From positions 32,001-96,000 of the forward strand of contig JBHLPW010000006.1 in NCBI GenBank assembly GCA_048939015.1: 64,000 nucleotides of DNA, written 5' to 3'. This DNA comes from Promethearchaeota archaeon. GTDB lineage: Archaea; Asgardarchaeota; Lokiarchaeia; Sigyniarchaeales; SOKP01. The notes below the pieces were generated by a model. It saw only the letters and a list, made by a program, of their open reading frames with translations. It had not been told where the DNA came from and ran no database searches. A program made the position numbers and the translations under genes. Shown piece after piece: positions 11,416 through 22,066 of this stretch. How positions within the stretch are numbered: position 1 is the stretch's first letter; each line of letters starts with the position of its first letter.

Positions 11416-11883
11416 CTACTCAGGAATAATAATCGAGTGATCTTCTTTTATTCGGTCTAAGACAATCTCTGTCTTGACTTCCTCAACTCCAGGAAGGTTG
11501 CGAAGTGTTTCTATAAGACCCATGGAGTCTGAATGATCTAGACATTTAGCCATTATGAACAAGGGATATTCTCCAGTGACCACATAAGCATACTTGATTT
11601 TTTCCATCTTTTCAATCTCGTTTTTAACATCCTCTAAGGGATTTGTTGCATTTACTCTCAGTGATGCCATTACCATTTCACGATATCCCAATTGGCGACA
11701 ATCAATCAACGCAACATACTTTTTAATCAATTCTTTCTCAAGTCGTTGAATACGTGCTCTTATCGCAGTAGCACTCTTATTAGTTTGGTGAGCAATTTCT
11801 CGGATAGTTATTTTTGCATCTTCCTGCAACAATTCGAGAATTTGTCTGTCTATATCATCTATAGTTCCATTTGTTATAACCAT
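11416..11883 (-). CDS. Lrp/AsnC family transcriptional regulator
   Basis: DDIDRQILELLQEDAK HTH, RIQRLEK, C-terminal RAM domain with VTGEY. Confidence 0.93.
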   Translation of the reverse strand: MVITNGTIDDIDRQILELLQEDAKITIREIAHQTNKSATAIRARIQRLEKELIKKYVALIDCRQLGYREMVMASLRVNATNPLEDVKNEIEKMEKIKYAYVVTGEYPLFIMAKCLDHSDSMGLIETLRNLPGVEEVKTEIVLDRIKEDHSIIIPE

Positions 11884-12178: not shown

Positions 12179-12412
12179 GTGAAAAAAATGGCTGTTAAAA
12201 CACTTGATTATACTGGATTGAAATGTCCGATGCCAGTGTTGAAAACTAAAAAGGAATTAAGAAGTTTGGTTTCTGGAGATGTAATAGAAGTTATCGCTGA
12301 TGATGTCGGCGCCAAAAAAGATATTCCAGCTCTTCTTAACAAGATTGGTGACGAATTAGTAGAGCTTCGAGAAGATAATGGAAATTTAACTTTTGTCATT
12401 AAAAAAGCGTAA
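12179..12412 (+). CDS. tusA: Sulfurtransferase TusA family protein
   Basis: LDYTGLKCPMP motif. The likely start is ATG 12188. Confidence 0.92.
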   Translation: MKKMAVKTLDYTGLKCPMPVLKTKKELRSLVSGDVIEVIADDVGAKKDIPALLNKIGDELVELREDNGNLTFVIKKA

Positions 12413-12429
12413 AATACGTTATACGGAGT

Positions 12430-12810
12430 ATGGATATTAATATGTCTAAATATGTTTTCTTTATTAGCACAGAGCCTTATAAATATCAAGCAGTAGATTC
12501 TCTGATAGAAATAGGTAAAGCTGCAATAAAAAAGGGGCATGAAATTACGGGTATATTTTTCTTTGGAACTGGTGTCTATAATCTTAAAAAGGATATTAGT
12601 TGCGGAAGTACTCTAAGAAACATTCCTGAAAAAATTGAGAAATTTTCTAAAGAGAATAATATTCGCGTTGCTGGATGTAGTACATGGGTAAGTATAACAG
12701 GGCTGAAAGAACCAGAATTCATTGAAGGAGCATCTGAAGAAGGTTTAGGGGACTTTTCAAATTGGGCGATTGGGGCTGATAAACTAATAGTATTTGGAGC
12801 AGGAGGTTAG
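12430..12810 (+). CDS. dsrE: DsrE/TusD family sulfur relay protein
   Basis: PY...A, GH.I..IFF.G.GV, active-site-equivalent Cys in AGCSTW, GL.DF...D..I.F. Confidence 0.82.
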   Translation: MDINMSKYVFFISTEPYKYQAVDSLIEIGKAAIKKGHEITGIFFFGTGVYNLKKDISCGSTLRNIPEKIEKFSKENNIRVAGCSTWVSITGLKEPEFIEGASEEGLGDFSNWAIGADKLIVFGAGG

Positions 12811-12815
12811 GTATT

Positions 12816-13184
12816 ATGGTAGAATCTGTGGTAATAATAAGTGATCAATCTCCTATTGGACGAAATTCTGCTGTTGAAGTTATTAGAATTGGTTCAGGAT
12901 TCACTGCACTTGGAGAATTCATTGATTGTAAAATTGTATTTATGGGGGATGCTGTGTATCTATTCAATAAAAATTGCGATCCTGAGGTGGTAGGAATGGA
13001 TTCTTTAGCAGAAGTATTAGAAATGGCTGATTTATCAGATTTAGAAGTAAATATTATTGAATCTGCTTTACAAGATGCGGGATTAACAAAAGAAGATATG
13101 ATTGACTATGAAAATTTGAAATTCATTGGATACGATGAACTAACAGATTTGATTGCTAATGCAGATGTGTCTTTTAGATATTAG
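12816..13184 (+). CDS. dsrF: DsrF/TusC family protein
   Basis: SP.G...A.E..R and VFMGDAVY motifs. Positioned between dsrE and dsrH. Confidence 0.8.
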   Translation: MVESVVIISDQSPIGRNSAVEVIRIGSGFTALGEFIDCKIVFMGDAVYLFNKNCDPEVVGMDSLAEVLEMADLSDLEVNIIESALQDAGLTKEDMIDYENLKFIGYDELTDLIANADVSFRY

Positions 13185-13200
13185 AGGAGGTTAGAAAAAG

Positions 13201-13542
13201 ATGTCAGAAAATCTTGATATGATATATTTGTTTGGATATAGCGGATTAACAGGAAGTCAATTAGAGAGATTATTACCTATTTTAAAAAGTCAAATTAAAA
13301 AGAACACAAAACTTGGATTAGTTTTAATTCATGATGGCGTTATCGGGATTACAACAAAGGGAAAGATGCCAAAAGAACTGGAAGAAATTCTCAGTTTAGA
13401 TGTTGAATTATTTGCTATGAAATCAGATATGAAAGCACGTGGTATTGCTCCTGAATATGTACATGACAAAATTAAAGCAATAGATTATGATGACCTTATA
13501 GATGTCATTGATACTACACCAAAAGTGATATCTTGGATGTAG
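13201..13542 (+). CDS. dsrH: DsrH/TusB family protein
   Basis: LIHDGV, D..ARG and IDYD.LID....K.ISW signatures. Confidence 0.85.
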   Translation: MSENLDMIYLFGYSGLTGSQLERLLPILKSQIKKNTKLGLVLIHDGVIGITTKGKMPKELEEILSLDVELFAMKSDMKARGIAPEYVHDKIKAIDYDDLIDVIDTTPKVISWM

Positions 13543-13653
13543 GAGGACAAGAAAACAAAATTCAAAAAATTTTTTTGAAAAATCCTGGGTTAAACCAGAA
13601 AAATTAAACTATATATAACAAAAAAAAGGAAATTTCCAAAAAAAAACAAAAAA

Positions 13654-14088
13654 GTGGTAAATATGGCTGAAGATGCTGAAACAATAAACTTTATTGTAAA
13701 GGATAAGTCATTTGAGAAGTTTGCGATGATGGCTATCCTTGGTTCAACTGGTGACGCAATGGATATGAAAATGAATTTTTTCTTTACCTTTTGGGGTTTG
13801 AACTTATTAACCAAAAAGTTTAAACCTAAAGTTGCTGGAATGCCTACTCCTATGAAAGGTATGGGAGCAAAAATTTTCACAAAAAGGATGAAAAAGTTTG
13901 GAATTGAAGATCCATGGGCTTTAATTAAAGATGGTGTTGAAAACGGTAATTTAAAATTATATCCATGTCAAATGACAATGGATTTAATGGGTATTAAAGC
14001 TGAAGATATAATTGATTTCGCAGAACCACCGGTTGGAGCAGCTTCATTCTTAGAAATGAGCAATGGAGGCAGAATAGTCTCATTATAA
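13654..14088 (+). CDS. DsrE/DsrF/DrsH-like (DsrE2-type) sulfurtransferase
   Basis: FFTFWGL, PCQMTMDLMG and VGAA.FL motifs. Confidence 0.85.
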   Translation: MVNMAEDAETINFIVKDKSFEKFAMMAILGSTGDAMDMKMNFFFTFWGLNLLTKKFKPKVAGMPTPMKGMGAKIFTKRMKKFGIEDPWALIKDGVENGNLKLYPCQMTMDLMGIKAEDIIDFAEPPVGAASFLEMSNGGRIVSL

Positions 14089-14131: not shown

Positions 14132-14698
14132 GTGATGATAATGTCTGATGTAAAAGAAGAACACCGTGAATTTAAAACGGATGATGATTTTGATCAAGAA
14201 TTTTTTAAAAGTATAGAGAGAAGATCAAATATCTGGCAGTGCATCCAATGTGGTACATGCACAGCGAGCTGTGAAAGTGGAAGATGGACTGCTTTAAAAA
14301 CTCGTTCAATTGTAAGAAAAGTGGTATTAGGAGACCTTTCAGTGCTAAGGGACCCTGATATTTGGTTATGTACAACATGTTATCAATGTTATGAGCGATG
14401 TCCACGTGATGTAAGACCTACTGATGTAATTATGGAGTTAAGAAATTACGCTACTAAATTAGGTAATATTTCTCCTAACCATAGAGCGGTTGTAGGTTAT
14501 TTAAAGAATTTTGGACATGCTGTACCAATTAATGATGAAGTAAGAAAAAGAAGAGTCGATTTAGGACTAGAAGAATTACCTCCTACTGCGTTTAAATTTA
14601 AGCAAGAGGGGGATGATAAAGATTTAAAGAATATTGAAGAATATATGTTTAATTTACCTCCAGTTAAGGAGGATAAAAAAGAAAAGGAGGAGGCATAA
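14132..14698 (+). CDS. hdrC: Heterodisulfide reductase subunit C
   Basis: CIQCGTCTASC, IWLCTTCYQCYERCPR and GHAVPI. Confidence 0.93.
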   Translation: MMIMSDVKEEHREFKTDDDFDQEFFKSIERRSNIWQCIQCGTCTASCESGRWTALKTRSIVRKVVLGDLSVLRDPDIWLCTTCYQCYERCPRDVRPTDVIMELRNYATKLGNISPNHRAVVGYLKNFGHAVPINDEVRKRRVDLGLEELPPTAFKFKQEGDDKDLKNIEEYMFNLPPVKEDKKEKEEA

Positions 14699-14700
14699 AA

Positions 14701-15618
14701 TTGGTTAAAGAAAACACATTTGCGTTCTTTTTAGGGTGTATAATGCCTAATCGATATCCTGCGATCGAGAAATCAACGAAATTTGTCATGGATAAATTAG
14801 GATATGAACTCTTAGATATGGAAAGAGCAACTTGTTGTCCTGCTCCAGGAGTTTTCCGTTCTTTCAATAAATTTGATTGGATGGTGGCAGCTGCAAGAAA
14901 TCTTTGTATTGCTGAAAAATTAGATGCTGATATTTTAACAGTTTGTAATGGCTGTTTTGGCACACTTCAAGAAGTAAATAAACACCTTAAAGAAAACGAA
15001 GAACATCGTGAAATGGTAAACGAAAAACTCAAATTACTGGGAGACTATGAATTTAAAGGAACGATTAATGTACGCCATGTAGCTGAAGTTTTGGGTTATG
15101 AAATTGGACCATGGGGAATTGAAGATCATATTGTTAGAAAATTAAATCTTAAAGCGGCGATTCATTATGGGTGTCATTTCTTAAAGCCTACCAGAATTAG
15201 GGAAATTGAAAGTTCTGAAGGTCCAACAATAATTGAAGATTTTATTGAAGTATTAGGAGTTGAATCGGTACGATTTAAAGAACAGCTTACATGCTGTGGT
15301 GCAGGTGGAGGGGTAAAAGCATATTCTGGTGATGCAAGTATGACAATTTTCGGTGAGAAAATGAAAAACATCGATGAAGTAAAACCAGATATAATCTTAG
15401 ATATCTGTCCATTTTGTCATTTACAATTTGAAACAGGCCAAGATTATTTAAATAAAAACAAAGGCTGTAATTATGATTATCCTGTAATTCATATCTCACA
15501 ACTCGTTGCCTATTGTATGGGAATGGATCAAGAATTTATTGGTCTTCAATATCAGTTAATGGGACAGGAGTTTATATTTGGAGGAGAAGAATTAAATAAA
15601 GAGGAGGAGGTTGCTTAA
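14701..15618 (+). CDS. hdrB: Heterodisulfide reductase subunit B
   Basis: Two CCG domains: GC..CCPAPG..CNGC and GCH..CCGAGGG..CPFC. TTG start after a GGAGG SD. Confidence 0.94.
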   Translation: MVKENTFAFFLGCIMPNRYPAIEKSTKFVMDKLGYELLDMERATCCPAPGVFRSFNKFDWMVAAARNLCIAEKLDADILTVCNGCFGTLQEVNKHLKENEEHREMVNEKLKLLGDYEFKGTINVRHVAEVLGYEIGPWGIEDHIVRKLNLKAAIHYGCHFLKPTRIREIESSEGPTIIEDFIEVLGVESVRFKEQLTCCGAGGGVKAYSGDASMTIFGEKMKNIDEVKPDIILDICPFCHLQFETGQDYLNKNKGCNYDYPVIHISQLVAYCMGMDQEFIGLQYQLMGQEFIFGGEELNKEEEVA

Positions 15619-17646
15619 ATGACAGTAAAAGATGAAAAAGTAACCGATTCAAGTAATATTAGTGATAATGAAAAAGAAGAAGAACCTAAAATAGGCGTTT
15701 TTATATGTCATTGTGGTCATAATATCGCAGGGACAGTTGATGTGGCTAAAGTCGCAGATTATGCTAAAAATTTGCCTAATGTGGTTAAAGCGGAGCATTA
15801 TATGTTTATGTGTTCTAAACCAGGAGTTCAAATGCTCAAAGATTCTATTGAAGAATTAGGAGTTAATCGTAGTGTAGTAGCCAGTTGCTCGAAAAACCAA
15901 CATGGCAGAACTTTTGCTAAAGCAATTGAAGAGATGGGACTTAATAAGCACAGACATCAACAAGTAAATATTAGAGAATTTAATAGTTGGGTACATCAGA
16001 AAGAGAAAGATAAAGCAACCAATAAAGCAATGAAGTTAGTGGAAGCTGGAGTAAATAGGGCAAGGAAACTAGAGGATGTTGAAACTCGAAGAGTCCCAAC
16101 TACTAAAGCCGCGTTAGTTATTGGTGCTGGAATTGCTGGACTTCGTGCTTCTTATGATCTAGCCGAATTAGGGATACCAGTTTATTTAATTGAGAGACTT
16201 TCAACTATCGGAGGGCATATGACTCAATTAAATAAGACATTTCCAACACTTGAGTGTCCACAGTGTTCAATAAGTCCTTTGACTAATGGAGTTGCAAATC
16301 ACCCACTTGTTGAGCTTTATACAAACGCTCAGATAAAAAACGTACAAGGATCGATGGGTAATTTTGAAGTTGAGGTTGAAATAAAACCTCGATACGTTAA
16401 AGATAATTGTACATCTTGTGGTGAATGTGCTGCTCATTGTCCTGTGGAAGTCCCTAGTGAATGGGACAGTGGAATGTCAATGAGAAACGCAATTTATAAA
16501 GCTTATCCGCAAGCAATTCCCGCTACGTATGTGAGAGACAAGAAAAATTGTATTGAATGTAATACGTGTGTTAATGTTTGTCCCGTTCAGGCTGTAGATT
16601 TTTCAATGCAAGCAGAAACTAAAACTTTTAAAGTTGGTTCTATTGTTGTTGCTGCAGGTTATGATGAGTATGACCCATCAGAAATAGAACCATACCATTA
16701 TGGTCAAGAAGGATTTGAAGATGTTATAACTCAACTCAAATTAGAAAGGATGTTAGCTCCAGGTTCTCTTACTAACAGTCAAGTACTTCGTCCTTCTGAT
16801 GGTAAAATCCCCAAAAGTGTCGTAATGATACAATGTGTAGGAAGTAGAAATGATCAAGTAGGAAATCAATATTGTACAGGAGTTTGTTGTAAATTTGCAA
16901 TTAAGAATGCTCGAATTGTAAAAGAAATGTATCCAGATACAGATGTTACAATTTGCTATATTGATGTGAGAACTCCTGGTTTAAACTTTGAAGAATTATA
17001 TAAATCTGCACAAGAAGTGGGTGTAAGATTCATTAGAGGACGTCCATCAGAGATCCTAAGAGATCCTGTGTCTGGAGAATTAAAGGTAATTGTTGAAGAT
17101 ACATTAAGTCAAACTCCTTTAAAACTAAAAGCAGATATGGTAGTATTATCAGCAGCGATGGTACCTCCCGAAGGTATCGGTCCATTAGGATCAAAGTTAC
17201 AGGTTCTACGCTCAAAAGAAGGATTTTTAAAAGAATTCCATATTAAAATGAATCCGACTTTAAGCAGTAAAGGAGGAATATTTTTAGCGGGAGCAATTCA
17301 AGGTCCTAAAGATATTTCTGAAAGTGTTGCTCAAGCAGGTAATGCTGCAGCTATAGCTGCTGCTCCATTAGTTAAGGGCTATATTGAAAAGGAAATGTTA
17401 ATTCCTTCAGTAGATTTTGAATTATGCGTAAGATGTAGTTTATGTAAAACTGTATGTGCTCCAGCAGCGATAGAAATAAATGATGATGGAACGCCTATGA
17501 TTAATGAAGTTGCTTGTAAATCATGTGGTATGTGCATGCCTGTATGTCCTACGGGAGCAATTCAATTATTAAATTTTAGTGATGATCAATTGTTAGATGA
17601 AATAATCGCAATATCAGGAGGAGGTGCTGTATGCGAAAATGAGTGA
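15619..17646 (+). CDS. hdrA: Heterodisulfide reductase subunit A
   Basis: CHCG.NI, NIRE..SW.H, GAGIAG, KTFPT.EC..C, inserted 2[4Fe-4S] domain, QCVGSR..CT.VCC, C-terminal ferredoxin. Confidence 0.95.
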   Translation: MTVKDEKVTDSSNISDNEKEEEPKIGVFICHCGHNIAGTVDVAKVADYAKNLPNVVKAEHYMFMCSKPGVQMLKDSIEELGVNRSVVASCSKNQHGRTFAKAIEEMGLNKHRHQQVNIREFNSWVHQKEKDKATNKAMKLVEAGVNRARKLEDVETRRVPTTKAALVIGAGIAGLRASYDLAELGIPVYLIERLSTIGGHMTQLNKTFPTLECPQCSISPLTNGVANHPLVELYTNAQIKNVQGSMGNFEVEVEIKPRYVKDNCTSCGECAAHCPVEVPSEWDSGMSMRNAIYKAYPQAIPATYVRDKKNCIECNTCVNVCPVQAVDFSMQAETKTFKVGSIVVAAGYDEYDPSEIEPYHYGQEGFEDVITQLKLERMLAPGSLTNSQVLRPSDGKIPKSVVMIQCVGSRNDQVGNQYCTGVCCKFAIKNARIVKEMYPDTDVTICYIDVRTPGLNFEELYKSAQEVGVRFIRGRPSEILRDPVSGELKVIVEDTLSQTPLKLKADMVVLSAAMVPPEGIGPLGSKLQVLRSKEGFLKEFHIKMNPTLSSKGGIFLAGAIQGPKDISESVAQAGNAAAIAAAPLVKGYIEKEMLIPSVDFELCVRCSLCKTVCAPAAIEINDDGTPMINEVACKSCGMCMPVCPTGAIQLLNFSDDQLLDEIIAISGGGAVCENE

Positions 17647-18091
17647 ATGTGAATATATTGAACCAGAAGTACTTGAAAAGATGGAAAATATTGTAGTTTT
17701 TATGTGTAATGAATGTGGACAAGGTTCAGCAAACACAGCAGGAGTGGCTCGAATGGCATATAATCCAGCAATTCGAATAGTTCGAGTCCAATGTACAGGT
17801 CAAGTTGGTCCTATTCAGATTATGGATGCTTTAAGTAACGGAGCGGATTCTGTTGCGTGTGTTGGTTGTTGTTTAGGAGCTTGTCATTTCTTTAATGGCA
17901 ATATTTTATCCATGCATAGAATAAAATTAATGAAAAAGTTATTTAAGGAGTTAGGTTATAGTGATCAGTTTGTTAATCAATATACTTCGAGAGCTGCTGA
18001 AGGAGAAACGGCAGTCGGAGATTTTGAAGATATTGTGGAGCGATTAGCAACTGCAATTAGAGAGGAGGGGACTTTCAAAGATGGATGTTAG
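17639..18091 (+). CDS. mvhD: MvhD-type [2Fe-2S] subunit (Hdr electron-input adaptor)
   Basis: FMCNEC, RVQCTG, GAD...GC..G.CHF..GN. Overlaps the hdrA stop. ATG 17639 preferred over GTG 17624. Confidence 0.88.
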   Translation: MSECEYIEPEVLEKMENIVVFMCNECGQGSANTAGVARMAYNPAIRIVRVQCTGQVGPIQIMDALSNGADSVACVGCCLGACHFFNGNILSMHRIKLMKKLFKELGYSDQFVNQYTSRAAEGETAVGDFEDIVERLATAIREEGTFKDGC

Positions 18092-19322
18092 AGTATTTCA
18101 GTTTAATGGATGTAATAAATGCTTTAATGAGACGATACTTTTAAAAGGAGAATCCAAATATAAAGTAGAATTTATACAAGATCCTCAAAACTGGAAAGAA
18201 CAAAAGACTGAGGTATCAATTATCACTGGATTTTTACTACCAGAGAATAAAGAAATTTTAAATAAGATTAAAGCAAATTCAGAAAAAGTAATTGCATATG
18301 GAAATTGTACTACAACAGGAGGGATTTTTGCTCTTGCTAATCAAAAAAGTCATGATGTAACTCCATTAAAAAACATAATCGAAGATTCAATTAATATTAA
18401 TGGATGTTTAGGGGAAATTGAGGAATTAAAGCTAGAGATTGAAGATAATGATCTCCCAAAATTAAAGAATCTATGTATAGTATGTGGAAGACGGAAAACA
18501 TGTGATTACTTAGACGATGTAAAACGTCAAATTGAATTAGGAGATACTGAGACATGTTTTAATGATCTTGGGTATCTTTGTAATGGTTTTATATCAAAAG
18601 AATGCAAAGAACGATGTATTGATTATAATGCCCCATGTAGAGGTTGTAAACCAATTATAGAACGTTCTGGAATCAGAATGTTAGGAATGTTTGGAACTCT
18701 TATGGGAAATATTGAAGTAGCGACTGAACACTCTGAAAAGGGAGCAACTGATAAATTAGCAGATAGGGATGATGATATAACGGAAAGATTGCCAGATATA
18801 GTAGGAAATTTCTTTAGATTTACTTTACCAACATCAGGATTACCAAAAGGCAGAATTCCTTCAAATGGTAATATTTTAGATGACGTTTTTACTGGAAGAC
18901 TTATTGAAGAATTACCTTTGATTTCAGGATTATTAGGAGGAGATCATTCAATCTCACTAACATTAAAAATAATTGAAACTTACGAGGAAGCAAATGAAAT
19001 TGAAGTAAGCGAAAAAACAAAAAATTATCGAAGTCAATTGCTAAAATTGGAAGATCAACTCCAAAAGGCGATTCAAAGTAAAGATCTGGAAGAATATAAG
19101 AAAATTACTGAAGAAATTCGTAAAATTGCGGGAAATATGAATTTATCTAATTTAACTTATGGAGGATTCAGGTCTCAAATTGATGATAATGATGATTTTG
19201 AAGAATATAAAGCCCACGTTTTTGAAGTGGTCGAAGGAACATATAAAAATGGTTCTGTTGAATTTACAATTGATCCAGTTGGCATTGTAAAACAAATTAA
19301 AATTAAAGAGGGATATGCATGA
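18081..19322 (+). CDS. MvhG/FrhG-like [NiFe]-hydrogenase small-subunit homolog with long C-terminal extension
   Basis: GCNKC, YGNC...GG, NGC, CIVC and CF...G.LC.G......C...C......CRGC cluster ligands, followed by about 150 extra residues. Confidence 0.75.
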   Translation: MDVRVFQFNGCNKCFNETILLKGESKYKVEFIQDPQNWKEQKTEVSIITGFLLPENKEILNKIKANSEKVIAYGNCTTTGGIFALANQKSHDVTPLKNIIEDSININGCLGEIEELKLEIEDNDLPKLKNLCIVCGRRKTCDYLDDVKRQIELGDTETCFNDLGYLCNGFISKECKERCIDYNAPCRGCKPIIERSGIRMLGMFGTLMGNIEVATEHSEKGATDKLADRDDDITERLPDIVGNFFRFTLPTSGLPKGRIPSNGNILDDVFTGRLIEELPLISGLLGGDHSISLTLKIIETYEEANEIEVSEKTKNYRSQLLKLEDQLQKAIQSKDLEEYKKITEEIRKIAGNMNLSNLTYGGFRSQIDDNDDFEEYKAHVFEVVEGTYKNGSVEFTIDPVGIVKQIKIKEGYA

Positions 19323-21787
19323 GTTTTGAATTATTAAGAGAAGAAATAGTGGATGCTGGTCTTTGTCAAGGATGTGGTTTATGTGCTGGTTCATGTAAAC
19401 ATATTGAAATGGATCTAAGGCGTCCAACTTTAAAAGATTATTGTATATTGGAAAGAGATGGAAAAGATTGTGGCAAATGCTATCAAAATTGTCCTCAAGT
19501 AATCCAGAAAAAATTTAAAGAAAAGCAGCCTCTTGCGATTTACTCATTAAGAAGTAAAGACCCAGCTATTTTGAATAAAGCTTCAAGTGGAGGCTTTGTA
19601 ACTACTTTTGCTAAAGAATTGTTGGAGAATGAATCTCTTAAAGAAATAGTAATGGTTCAAGAAGAAGACGAGAAACCTACAGCTGAAATAGTTTCTGATC
19701 CTAATGACGTAGTTCAAAAGGCTGGGGTTATTTATGGTAGGTCTGGAGTACTGCAGAAATTAGTAGAACTTACCGGTGAAACATTTGAGCCGATTGGCAT
19801 AGTTGGTGTACCCTGTGAAATGCGTGGTGCTGCTGAACTTGAAGAAGATATGAATCGAGAAATTTTAAAAATTGGATTGTTTTGTAGTTCCCAAATGAGA
19901 ACTGAACAAACAGACAAGGGTTTAGTATGTTCTCCATGTTGTAATGGTTGTCCCTCTGGGGTCAATGCTCAAGGATATATATCATTGATACGTCAAGGAA
20001 AGTATCAAGATGCTGTTGATTTAATTAGAGAAAGTAATCCCCTTCCGTCTATATGTGGAAGAATTTGTACAAATGAGTGCGAGCATGGTTGTACTCTAAT
20101 TGGAGACGACCATCCTGTCGCGATTCGTGAATTAAAGAAATTTGTTACTGAATGGGAAATTGAAAGAGCTAAAAACACTTCAAAACAAAAAGCTAAATTA
20201 CCCAAAAATGCTAAAAAAGTAGCAATTATAGGATCTGGACCAGCAGGATTAACAGCGGCATATTATTTAAGGAGAATGGGTTATGCACCAACAATTTTTG
20301 AGAAGACAGATCAAACAGGAGGAATGCTAAGATTTGGTGTACCGCAGTTTCGATTACCTAATTATGTATTAGATTATGATGTAGGTAGGATCGTAGATTC
20401 TGGAGTTAAGGTTGTACTTAATAAGCCTTTAGGGCCTGAAATGTCTATTGATGATTTAAAGAATGATGGATTTGAAGCCATATTTATTGCAACTGGACAA
20501 TATAAACCCCGTACCTTACACTTAGAAGGAGAAGATTTACCAAATGTGCATGTAGCAATTCATTTTCTTATGGATAGAAAGTATCGATACTGGGAAAATA
20601 AAGAAGAATTTAAAGGCAAAACTTTAGGAATAATCGGAGGTGGACCAGTCGCAGTTGATGTTGCACAAACAGCTCTTAGATTAGGTGCAGATAAAGTTCA
20701 CCTTGTAGATATAATGTCAAAAGAACAACTCGAATTAGTACTACGAGAAATACCTGAAAATGAAATGGAATTTATGGAATATCACTTTACGACCTCAACT
20801 TCTAAAATCACTCAGAATAAAGATATAAAATTAGTTCTAAATTCTTATAAGATTGAATGGGGTAAACCTGATAAAAGTGGGAGGAAACCATTAATTAAAA
20901 TTGAAGAATCCGATTATCAGATACCAGTAGATTCCATTGTAATTGCAGTTGGTCAAGCAGTAGATTTTGAACAAATAGATGCTGCTACCAATAATATATT
21001 GGAAAAAGAACGAAATAGAATCAAAGTAAACGAGGTTACATTTGAAACAAATATACCTGGTGTTTTTGCTGGTGGAGATATAATCAGTAATTCTAAGGCT
21101 GTAGCCATTGCTGCTATAGCTCATGGAAAAGAAGCGGCAATTTCAATAGACAGATACTTAAAGGGAGAGAACTTAATGGAAGGAAGATACAAGATAAAGA
21201 ATTCCTTTTTCACTGGACCTAAAAAACCTCCAAAAGACTATTCCTTGAAACCAGATACTTTAGAAGAAGCAACTGAAGAAATTAATTGGAGTTTTGAGGA
21301 AATTGATCAAATGTTCAATGAAGATATGGCTTTACAGGAGGCTAGAAGATGTCTAAGTTGTAATCACTTCTGTTCTCATTGTCAAGATTTCCCTGCAATA
21401 TATTCAGATCTGACAGCGGGTGAAGTAGGATCACAAGAAGGCTATACTACAGTGGTAGTTTGGACAGAAAGAGGAAAAAATTTTGTTGAAGAAGCGATTA
21501 AAAAGGGATTATTCGAACAAGGAAAAGTCGATGATGAAGCATTGAAAAATGCTATAAATCTAAAATCAAAACGTGAATTGATGAATTTTGAAAAAACCCC
21601 AAGACAACAAGTATTAAACTATGTATCACTTCAAGGACCTAGTACTATTACAGATATCGTAAACCGAACAGGTCTTGAACCTAAAAAAGCAAGATATGAA
21701 GCGCTCCGATTAGTTCAATTAATGCAATTAGAGATGAAAGCTGAACCTGATATGGAGGAGCCAATATTTTCTATTATATGTGATTAA
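19319..21787 (+). CDS. Fusion: ferredoxin + FrhB/FdhB (F420-binding) domain interrupted by a GltD/NfnB-type FAD/NAD(P) oxidoreductase + C-terminal winged helix
   Basis: CQGCGLC..C; FrhB motifs SSGG.VT, VG.PC and IGLFC; GltD motifs PC..GCP..NP.P..CGR.C, GSGPAG, GGG.VA.D, FAGGD and EA.RCL.C; FrhB then resumes (C..C.DF....D...G.VG..G.T.V...T.RG); HTH-like tail. Confidence 0.85.
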   Translation: MSFELLREEIVDAGLCQGCGLCAGSCKHIEMDLRRPTLKDYCILERDGKDCGKCYQNCPQVIQKKFKEKQPLAIYSLRSKDPAILNKASSGGFVTTFAKELLENESLKEIVMVQEEDEKPTAEIVSDPNDVVQKAGVIYGRSGVLQKLVELTGETFEPIGIVGVPCEMRGAAELEEDMNREILKIGLFCSSQMRTEQTDKGLVCSPCCNGCPSGVNAQGYISLIRQGKYQDAVDLIRESNPLPSICGRICTNECEHGCTLIGDDHPVAIRELKKFVTEWEIERAKNTSKQKAKLPKNAKKVAIIGSGPAGLTAAYYLRRMGYAPTIFEKTDQTGGMLRFGVPQFRLPNYVLDYDVGRIVDSGVKVVLNKPLGPEMSIDDLKNDGFEAIFIATGQYKPRTLHLEGEDLPNVHVAIHFLMDRKYRYWENKEEFKGKTLGIIGGGPVAVDVAQTALRLGADKVHLVDIMSKEQLELVLREIPENEMEFMEYHFTTSTSKITQNKDIKLVLNSYKIEWGKPDKSGRKPLIKIEESDYQIPVDSIVIAVGQAVDFEQIDAATNNILEKERNRIKVNEVTFETNIPGVFAGGDIISNSKAVAIAAIAHGKEAAISIDRYLKGENLMEGRYKIKNSFFTGPKKPPKDYSLKPDTLEEATEEINWSFEEIDQMFNEDMALQEARRCLSCNHFCSHCQDFPAIYSDLTAGEVGSQEGYTTVVVWTERGKNFVEEAIKKGLFEQGKVDDEALKNAINLKSKRELMNFEKTPRQQVLNYVSLQGPSTITDIVNRTGLEPKKARYEALRLVQLMQLEMKAEPDMEEPIFSIICD

Positions 21788-21826: not shown

Positions 21827-22066
21827 ATGAAATACGATATGGAATTAAACGTCTGCGGGTTAGTATGTCCTGTCCCAGCTTTAAAAACTAAAAAACAGCT
21901 CATGAAAATGAGACCTGGCACAGTTTTAAAAGTTATAACAGACTATAAACCTGCTAGTGAATCTGTTCCCCGTGATTTAGCAAAACAAACTAAGCATAAA
22001 CACTTAGGAACGGAATTTCTCGAAGACGATGAACAATGGTATATCTATTTTGAAGCTGTAAAATAA
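21827..22066 (+). CDS. tusA: Sulfurtransferase TusA family protein (second copy)
   Basis: LNVCGLVCPVP..KTKK motif with a GAGGT SD upstream. Confidence 0.9.
   Translation: MKYDMELNVCGLVCPVPALKTKKQLMKMRPGTVLKVITDYKPASESVPRDLAKQTKHKHLGTEFLEDDEQWYIYFEAVK

Follow-up and report, generated by a model that had tools for sequence, protein, structure and literature searches.

Syntrophy models of the origin of eukaryotes give a central place to how Asgard archaea conserve energy. Reconstructions of this metabolism currently rest on the MvhADG-HdrABC hydrogenase, and the FlxABCD-HdrABC system of sulfate reducers has also been named for these archaea (PMC7015854). In the Elp-Hdr complex of M. marburgensis, the FrhB-type protein ElpB, MvhD (ElpC), and an inactive FdhA scaffold stand in for the Mvh hydrogenase, and electrons from reduced coenzyme F420 (F420H2) pass to HdrA (PMC12350162). 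Here we examine a protein encoded at positions 19319–21787 (forward strand) of a 64,000-nucleotide stretch, hereafter the window, from a Promethearchaeota archaeon (Lokiarchaeia; Sigyniarchaeales; SOKP01; assembly GCA_048939015.1, contig JBHLPW010000006.1, positions 32,001–96,000 of the forward strand). In this protein a complete GltD/NfnB-type module is nested within an FrhB fold, and on balance we favor a role for it as the subunit through which NADH feeds a heterodisulfide reductase (Hdr) complex that lacks a hydrogenase, is linked to sulfur carriers, and is made up of HdrABC, MvhD, and an MvhG-like protein. The operon would then encode an Hdr complex, widespread in Lokiarchaeia, whose hydrogenase has given way to an insertion-built, nicotinamide-linked flavoprotein and to which sulfur carriers are coupled.

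The nearest characterized system to this operon is Elp-Hdr. In both, an FrhB-fold subunit that feeds, or here would feed, HdrA is encoded with MvhD and HdrABC, and in both there is an inactive scaffold (ElpA there, the MvhG-like protein here). The two differ in that ElpB has a normal lid and oxidizes F420H2, whereas the nested protein has an NADH-type GltD module in the place of the lid and alone adds a ferredoxin domain at the N-terminus and a winged-helix tail; the scaffold, too, is derived from Fdh in one and from a hydrogenase in the other. FlxABCD-HdrABC is a proposed NADH-dependent, hydrogenase-less Hdr system with an MvhD-like connector, but FlxA is NfnA/HydG-like and this NADH subunit is unrelated to the nested protein, and the likeness is functional only. 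The N-terminal half of group I Fsr and FpoF share with the nested protein a ferredoxin domain with two [4Fe-4S] clusters followed by FrhB and the motif PC..C..CxxC (7NP8; PMC10229431); the same ferredoxin domain is also found at the C-terminus of FrhG. Fsr, however, keeps its lid (residues 204–253), uses F420H2, and carries its extra catalytic domain at the end rather than inserted (PMC10229431).

Insertion of a GltD domain into a redox protein is itself known from two systems. In StnC (8OH5) the domain sits within a NuoG-like host and serves as a non-bifurcating entry point for hydride from NADPH (PMC10482914); the hosts of StnC and Bfu-type NfnA are NuoG/FdhF-like and their nucleotide motif is YRR, whereas the nested protein has an FrhB host and reads VDIM. 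In type III HdrA, GltD is inserted in a subunit of the Hdr complex, where it has been proposed to give NADH access to Hdr, but the host is HdrA itself and the nine known sequences come from methane- or alkane-metabolizing archaea (PMC12054007), whereas the HdrA of the operon described here is ordinary. NfnAB resembles the module in its NfnB fold, two [4Fe-4S] clusters, and flavin adenine dinucleotide (FAD), but the nested protein has no NfnA partner in its operon, a permuted first cysteine motif, and an NADH-type signature. FrhB, HdrA, StnC, and an HdrD-like protein all host the same GltD cassette, which amounts to natural engineering with a redox module.

The gene is an intact open reading frame of 822 amino acids (aa), and its ATG overlaps the stop codon of the upstream MvhG-like gene by 4 nt (ATGA). 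From its N-terminus onward, the encoded protein comprises a ferredoxin domain bearing two [4Fe-4S] clusters (aa 1–65; 19319–19513; C16/19/22/26 and C42/51/54/58), the N-terminal half of FrhB (aa 66–197; 19514–19909; SSGGFVTT with G91, G92, and T95 invariant, Y139, PC166, and GLFC189), the inserted module (aa ~198–684; 19910–21370), the C-terminal half of FrhB (aa 685–757; 21371–21589; C685, C688, and DLTAGEVGS...TTVVVWT), and a winged-helix tail (aa 758–822; 21590–21784). Pfam placed FrhB_FdhB_N (PF04422) at aa 75–145 (1.4e-12), Fer4_20 at aa 190–283 (5.9e-23), Pyr_redox_2 at aa 299–603 (1.7e-29), and FrhB_FdhB_C (PF04432) at aa 667–739 (5.7e-19, profile positions 79–149 only), with both FrhB matches above the cut-off, and the GltD-like NCBIfam model PRK12771 spans aa 195–688. 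Conservation was assessed in 32 family members with identities down to 45%. The 20 cluster cysteines are invariant, those of the FrhB cluster in all 32 sequences, and provide ligands for five clusters per chain, eight residues lying in the ferredoxin domain, eight in the module, and four in the FrhB part.

Several lines of evidence show that this is a true domain insertion that keeps the FrhB core, as the first-pass annotation had proposed, and not an end-to-end fusion. A genome-wide scan with PF04432 matched the gene in two pieces (profile positions 4–49 at aa 159–200 and 68–149 at aa 656–739, with positions 50–67 absent), a split that is unique to it; about ten other FrhB paralogues of the genome are unsplit. 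Alignments to solved structures map FrhB and Fsr residues to aa 3–190 and 685–760. The FrhB cluster has a non-canonical motif: in M. marburgensis it is held by Cys104/134/192/195 (PMC3591093), and the corresponding motif in Fsr is PCX40CX54CX2C (PMC10229431). In the nested protein the four ligands are C166 and C189 from the N-terminal half and C685 and C688 from the C-terminal half, the CSHC of the latter aligning to Cys192/Cys195, so that one cluster is ligated from both halves. Although a whole-model Foldseek search with the AlphaFold2 model of the 822-aa protein returned GltD relatives only, a wide VIA-align search recovered FrhB-family structures, single alignments of which cover both halves of the model at once: FrhB (9r51_B; Z 22.0, 225 of 282 residues over model residues 65–760, root-mean-square deviation [rmsd] 4.0 Å), ElpB of Elp-Hdr (8rvu_E; Z 21.1, 190 aligned, 2.5 Å), the F420-reducing carbon monoxide dehydrogenase component (8riu_E; Z 20.9, 220 aligned, 3.5 Å), the F420-reducing Fmd complex (8rja_K; Z 20.8, 205 aligned, 2.9 Å), and Fsr (7np8_A; Z 16.8, 195 aligned, 3.0 Å). 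Domain boundaries and model thus agree that the two FrhB halves assemble together.

Nature has also supplied a control, as a deletion variant without the GltD module occurs in the same operon. This form, found as P0126 (381 aa) and as an open reading frame in genome G065, at the same place, joins residues 1–197 (73% identical) through about 50 residues to the C-terminal half and the tail, and its PF04432 match is contiguous (3–149). Because the linker retains GCTLIGE (module residues 257–263) and RCESC..CKHC, we take it to be a secondary deletion of the Rossmann domains rather than an ancestor. At the G065 locus (L026, G065:C4, 9390–10529 and 7636–8922, both reverse strand), the operon with the GltD-less gene has behind it a further HdrC/HdrB-like pair that is divergent, being 28–36% identical to the operon's own HdrC and HdrB.

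The module itself belongs by sequence and structure matches to the StnC/Bfu-NfnA subfamily. Its closest solved relatives are Bfu-type NfnA (9n5u/9n5v; E 4e-94, Z 28.6) and Csac NfnA (9bov), followed by StnC (8oh5; Z 27.8) and NfnB (4ylf_B; Z 26.3), with E values of 4e-94 to 1e-76 and Z of 27.8–28.6 against StnC and Bfu-type NfnA (9N5U, 9BOV). An iron–sulfur domain (Fer4_20; 19928–20167) with C207, C211, C246, C250, C254, and C258 is followed by the FAD Rossmann fold, from GSGPAG (G305, G307, G310) up to R345 in PQFRLP (20213–20323), by the nicotinamide Rossmann fold, from GGGPVAVD to VHLVDIM with D464 (20618–20728), and by a C-terminal lead-in that ends in EARRC678LSC681 (21260–21370). With C678 and C681, the module has eight invariant cysteines, enough for two [4Fe-4S] clusters, and C204 and C208 vary in distant members. 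The module shares with StnC and NfnA a PCxxxCP start and an EAxRCLxC pair after the Rossmann folds, whereas the pair is N-terminal in canonical NfnB; by its C-terminal position here, the module represents a permuted form of the NfnB arrangement, and both of its ends meet at one cluster motif. The EARRCLSC motif is part of the module rather than a separate element behind it, and it recurs in StnC, in Bfu-type NfnA, and in an Asgard paralogue. Since C681 lies only three residues from C685, covalent geometry implies that the cluster at the module junction must be near the FrhB cluster.

The nearest paralogue of the module, 54% identical over aa 205–683 and reading VDLVDIL, lies within a 921-aa protein of the same genome (G000 C21, L025:6993–9758, forward strand). 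This protein combines an HdrC-like ferredoxin part, the GltD module, and an HdrB-like CCG domain, and its sequence suggests an HdrD-type protein into which the same cassette has been inserted. Its gene stands alone beside peptidase and helicase genes.

The nucleotide signature of the nested protein is of the NADH type (VDIM) and not of the NADPH type (YRR). Where the nested protein has VHLVDIM, following the second strand of its nicotinamide fold, the motif in five solved homologues that bind NADPH is (V/I)YRR, and Asp at the position of D464 classically selects NAD(H). The motif VD(I/V)(M/A) is present in 30 of the 32 relatives; a relative with 56% identity reads VEIR and the one with 45% identity reads YRR. 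Retention of YRR in the latter points to an ancestor of the NADPH type, with the NADH signature adopted later.

The module also takes the place of the lid segment that contacts F420 in related enzymes. In FrhB this lid is a three-stranded sheet (residues 148–172) whose sole conserved part, the 163-IGKGK turn, lies beside the F420 ring, its lysines probably holding the phosphate, and F420 adjoins S209/V210 (PMC3591093); in Fsr the lid is the X54 segment between cluster cysteines 2 and 3 (PMC10229431). In the nested protein the module occupies exactly this position, and both the lid and the IGKGK-type turn are gone. The position of S209 is invariantly acidic (GE[VI]GS or GDLGS in 32/32 members), where four solved F420 enzymes read GS[VI]GS and four of the five unsplit FrhB paralogues of the same genome keep GS[IV]GS together with turns of the MDINKG(K/R)F type. 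Further changes are PCE for PCQ, VWT for VRT, and Val or Ile for the Lys of the FrhB Lys-Tyr loop (Lys75), the last of which is not diagnostic because Ile-Tyr is found as well in one unsplit paralogue whose F420 marks are otherwise complete. The sequence TDKG after GLFC was considered as a remnant of the IGKGK turn and dropped, as its spacing is wrong and its Lys variable. From these comparisons the F420 pocket has probably been lost or remodeled, and use of F420 by the nested protein is doubtful. The FAD pyrophosphate motif (GG..T) and Tyr139 are conserved, and the FAD site of the FrhB part is probably still occupied.

A separate protein of the same genome seems better suited to F420. This 909-aa end-to-end fusion (G000 C111, L014:682–3408, forward strand) consists of Fer4, FrhB with an intact lid (MDINKGRF, GSIGS), a canonical Fer4_20 with RCLQC at its N-terminus, and a Pyr_redox_2 domain that reads VVYRR. 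Since its lid is intact and it has YRR, its sequence makes it a better candidate than the nested protein for an F420H2:NADP-type two-flavin enzyme. The earlier proposal that the nested protein interconverts F420H2 and NAD(P)H is weakened accordingly by this fusion, as well as by the replaced lid, the GE[VI]GS loop, and the VDIM signature. A 67-member Promethearchaeota cluster with the make-up of the 909-aa fusion is present in the Atlas listing.

The genes around the nested gene point to an Hdr complex linked to sulfur carriers. A divergent AsnC/Lrp regulator gene that is conserved in synteny (11416–11883, reverse strand) is followed on the forward strand by four sulfur-carrier genes, DsrE, DsrF-like, DsrH, and DsrE2-type (12430–14088), by HdrC, HdrB, HdrA, and MvhD (14132–18091), by the MvhG-like small-subunit gene (18081–19322), and by the nested gene and TusA (21827–22066; motif CGLVCPVP; PF01206, 1.1e-17). 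TusA lies 40 nt downstream of the nested gene, so that the operon continues past the latter and closes with a sulfur carrier. A possible second TusA further upstream (12179–12427) gave no clean translation at the coordinates used. The MvhG-like protein matches MvhG over aa 1–256, and no solved structure matches its last ~155 aa by sequence. The operon lacks a [NiFe] large subunit; the genome encodes one at another locus. The gene order is kept in six other genomes, and the strict synteny, followed in relatives down to 52% identity (in the 45%-identity relative the gene lies at the end of a contig), bears out the link to MvhG-like, MvhD, and HdrA proteins that the first-pass annotation had drawn. 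In the most distant of these loci (L019, G273:C94), the nested protein is 52% identical whereas HdrA, HdrB, HdrC, and MvhD are 79–82% identical; judged by these identities, the donor subunit is evolving much faster than the Hdr core.

We suggest that the nested protein arose from a subunit of the FpoF/Fsr-N/ElpB type, composed of a ferredoxin domain and an FrhB fold, whose F420-side lid was replaced by an insertable GltD-type module. Electrons from NADH would then enter at the FAD of the module and pass through a proximal cluster and a distal cluster (C207/C258/C678/C681) to the FrhB cluster. From there they would move over the two N-terminal ferredoxin clusters and the MvhG-like protein to the [2Fe-2S] cluster of MvhD and the bifurcating FAD of HdrA, where ferredoxin might receive some of them and a disulfide or persulfide substrate at HdrB, supplied by the DsrE and TusA carriers, the others. 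A reverse role, in which the nested protein serves as the electron output of its complex, is possible. If this scheme is true, these archaea need no H2 to couple NADH and ferredoxin with an acceptor, either sulfur or a disulfide.

Several observations weigh against NADH input through the nested protein, or at least against this as its only function. The evidence consists of genes, sequence comparison, and a predicted model; the full-length model is of moderate quality (mean predicted local distance difference test [pLDDT] 69.7, predicted template modeling score [pTM] 0.50) and is weak at both module junctions and in the ferredoxin domain at the N-terminus. The assignment of the module cysteines to particular clusters is presumed by us from analogy with dihydropyrimidine dehydrogenase (DPD) and NfnB. 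Nucleotide preference varies within the family, YRR being retained in its most divergent member. The existence of the GltD-less variant indicates that the FrhB part is under selection without the NADH module and so has a role of its own. Moreover, the GG..T motif and Tyr139 are invariant and F420 is made by this genome, in which CofD and CofG exceed the cut-off, so that F420 or another hydride carrier could be used at the FrhB flavin.

These last points are the ones that would favor a dual-donor enzyme with two active flavins, F420H2 at the FrhB flavin and NAD(P)H at the GltD flavin, that interconverts the two or feeds Hdr from either; the FrhB scaffold kept by the GltD-less variant may likewise have its own substrate. 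We nevertheless consider this reading unlikely, as the segment replaced is the very lid that bears the F420-adjacent IGKGK turn, the F420-proximal Ser is an invariant Glu or Asp (site: PMC3591093), the canonical lid is absent from the GltD-less variant as well, and the 909-aa fusion suits F420/NADP chemistry better. A more ambitious form of it strikes us as quite improbable: the FrhB flavin would be a working hydride site for F420 or another deazaflavin- or flavin-type carrier, placing two donors on one iron–sulfur wire, and a three-flavin Hdr complex would reduce a sulfur substrate bound to protein as it confurcates or transhydrogenates between NADH, F420H2, and ferredoxin, with the winged-helix tail reporting redox state to DNA. 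At the other extreme, the FrhB part could be a flavin-less iron–sulfur docking scaffold that merely wires the GltD module to the MvhG-like subunit. Loss of the lid and the changes at Lys75, PCQ, and VRT are compatible with such a scaffold, but neither the GG..T at the N-terminus of the helix nor Y139 varies, and Ile-Tyr in an unsplit paralogue with otherwise complete F420 marks takes the force out of the Lys75 change; we regard a bare scaffold as decidedly unlikely.

The first-pass annotation had also raised the idea that the GltD flavin itself bifurcates, as in Nfn, giving a complex with two bifurcating centers. R345 corresponds to NfnB R201, which would fit this idea, but it also corresponds to R239 of StnC, which does not bifurcate (PMC10482914), and we rejected it as a marker of bifurcation. 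The module falls in the StnC/Bfu-NfnA subfamily rather than in NfnB proper, its nearest solved relatives are non-bifurcating NADPH entry domains (PMC10482914), and no NfnA-like partner with a [2Fe-2S] cluster and a second FAD is encoded in the conserved operon (the rest of the genome was not searched). A second bifurcating center is thus very improbable, and we retain NADH input into an Hdr complex with bifurcation at HdrA as the preferred explanation.

The last ~65 aa had been recognized from the outset as a likely winged helix, and modeling agrees. The model of the tail has a pLDDT of 85.8 and the order helix-helix-helix-strand-strand, and its top 50 structural matches are all winged-helix domains (Z 9.2–11.0 over 56–83 residues; rmsd 1.0–6.8 Å, most about 2 Å), among them MarR/ArsR/Fur, Z-alpha, SelB, TFE, and ESCRT-II types. 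A Pfam search with the tail alone returned no match, including none to a helix-turn-helix family. Invariant residues are R762, G773, T776, I777, R792, L796–L798, Q800, P815, and F817, with Arg792, Arg797, and Gln800 in the third tail helix, and Y793 and E814 are nearly invariant (≥90%). The tail may be a docking or nucleic-acid-binding element, of which we favor docking; fold similarity in itself does not establish a function. Most orthologues have a penultimate cysteine (C821 in ..FSIICD; 21779–21784), which recalls the arm of DsrC/TusE, and this residue together with an operon lacking DsrC prompted us to consider a DsrC/TusE-like tail. The idea was not supported: C821 is absent from the three most divergent members (P0103, P0122, and P0123), Pfam gave no DsrC match, and the top 50 folds are all winged helices.

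The nested architecture is common within one Lokiarchaeial order. We found more than 120 clusters at the 90% level (817–825 aa, 72–92% identity), labeled Lokiarchaeota or Promethearchaeota, in assemblies from NCBI, JGI, ENA, and Logan; a search of 1.84 billion representatives at 50% identity added just two more full-length clusters. Full-length, intact copies are present in at least 32 of the 301 genomes of the phylum. An assembly chimera across the junctions, or a broken gene, can practically be dismissed given these independent assemblies, intact frames in at least 32 species genomes, and the invariance of 20/20 cluster cysteines. A literature search on FrhB with Asgard or Lokiarchaeota, Hdr, or GltD found no description of a GltD-in-FrhB architecture; GltD insertion is known for StnC (PMC10482914) and type III HdrA (PMC12054007), and FrhB as a host appears to be new. 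No published characterization of the architecture was found. All full-length copies in the 301 genomes fall within the window's own family or order, save one that is 83% identical. This outlier carries the same operon on a 10-kb contig (G295:C137, L024) of a genome from another family (f24) with 9% contamination, and mis-binning is a more likely explanation for it than transfer.

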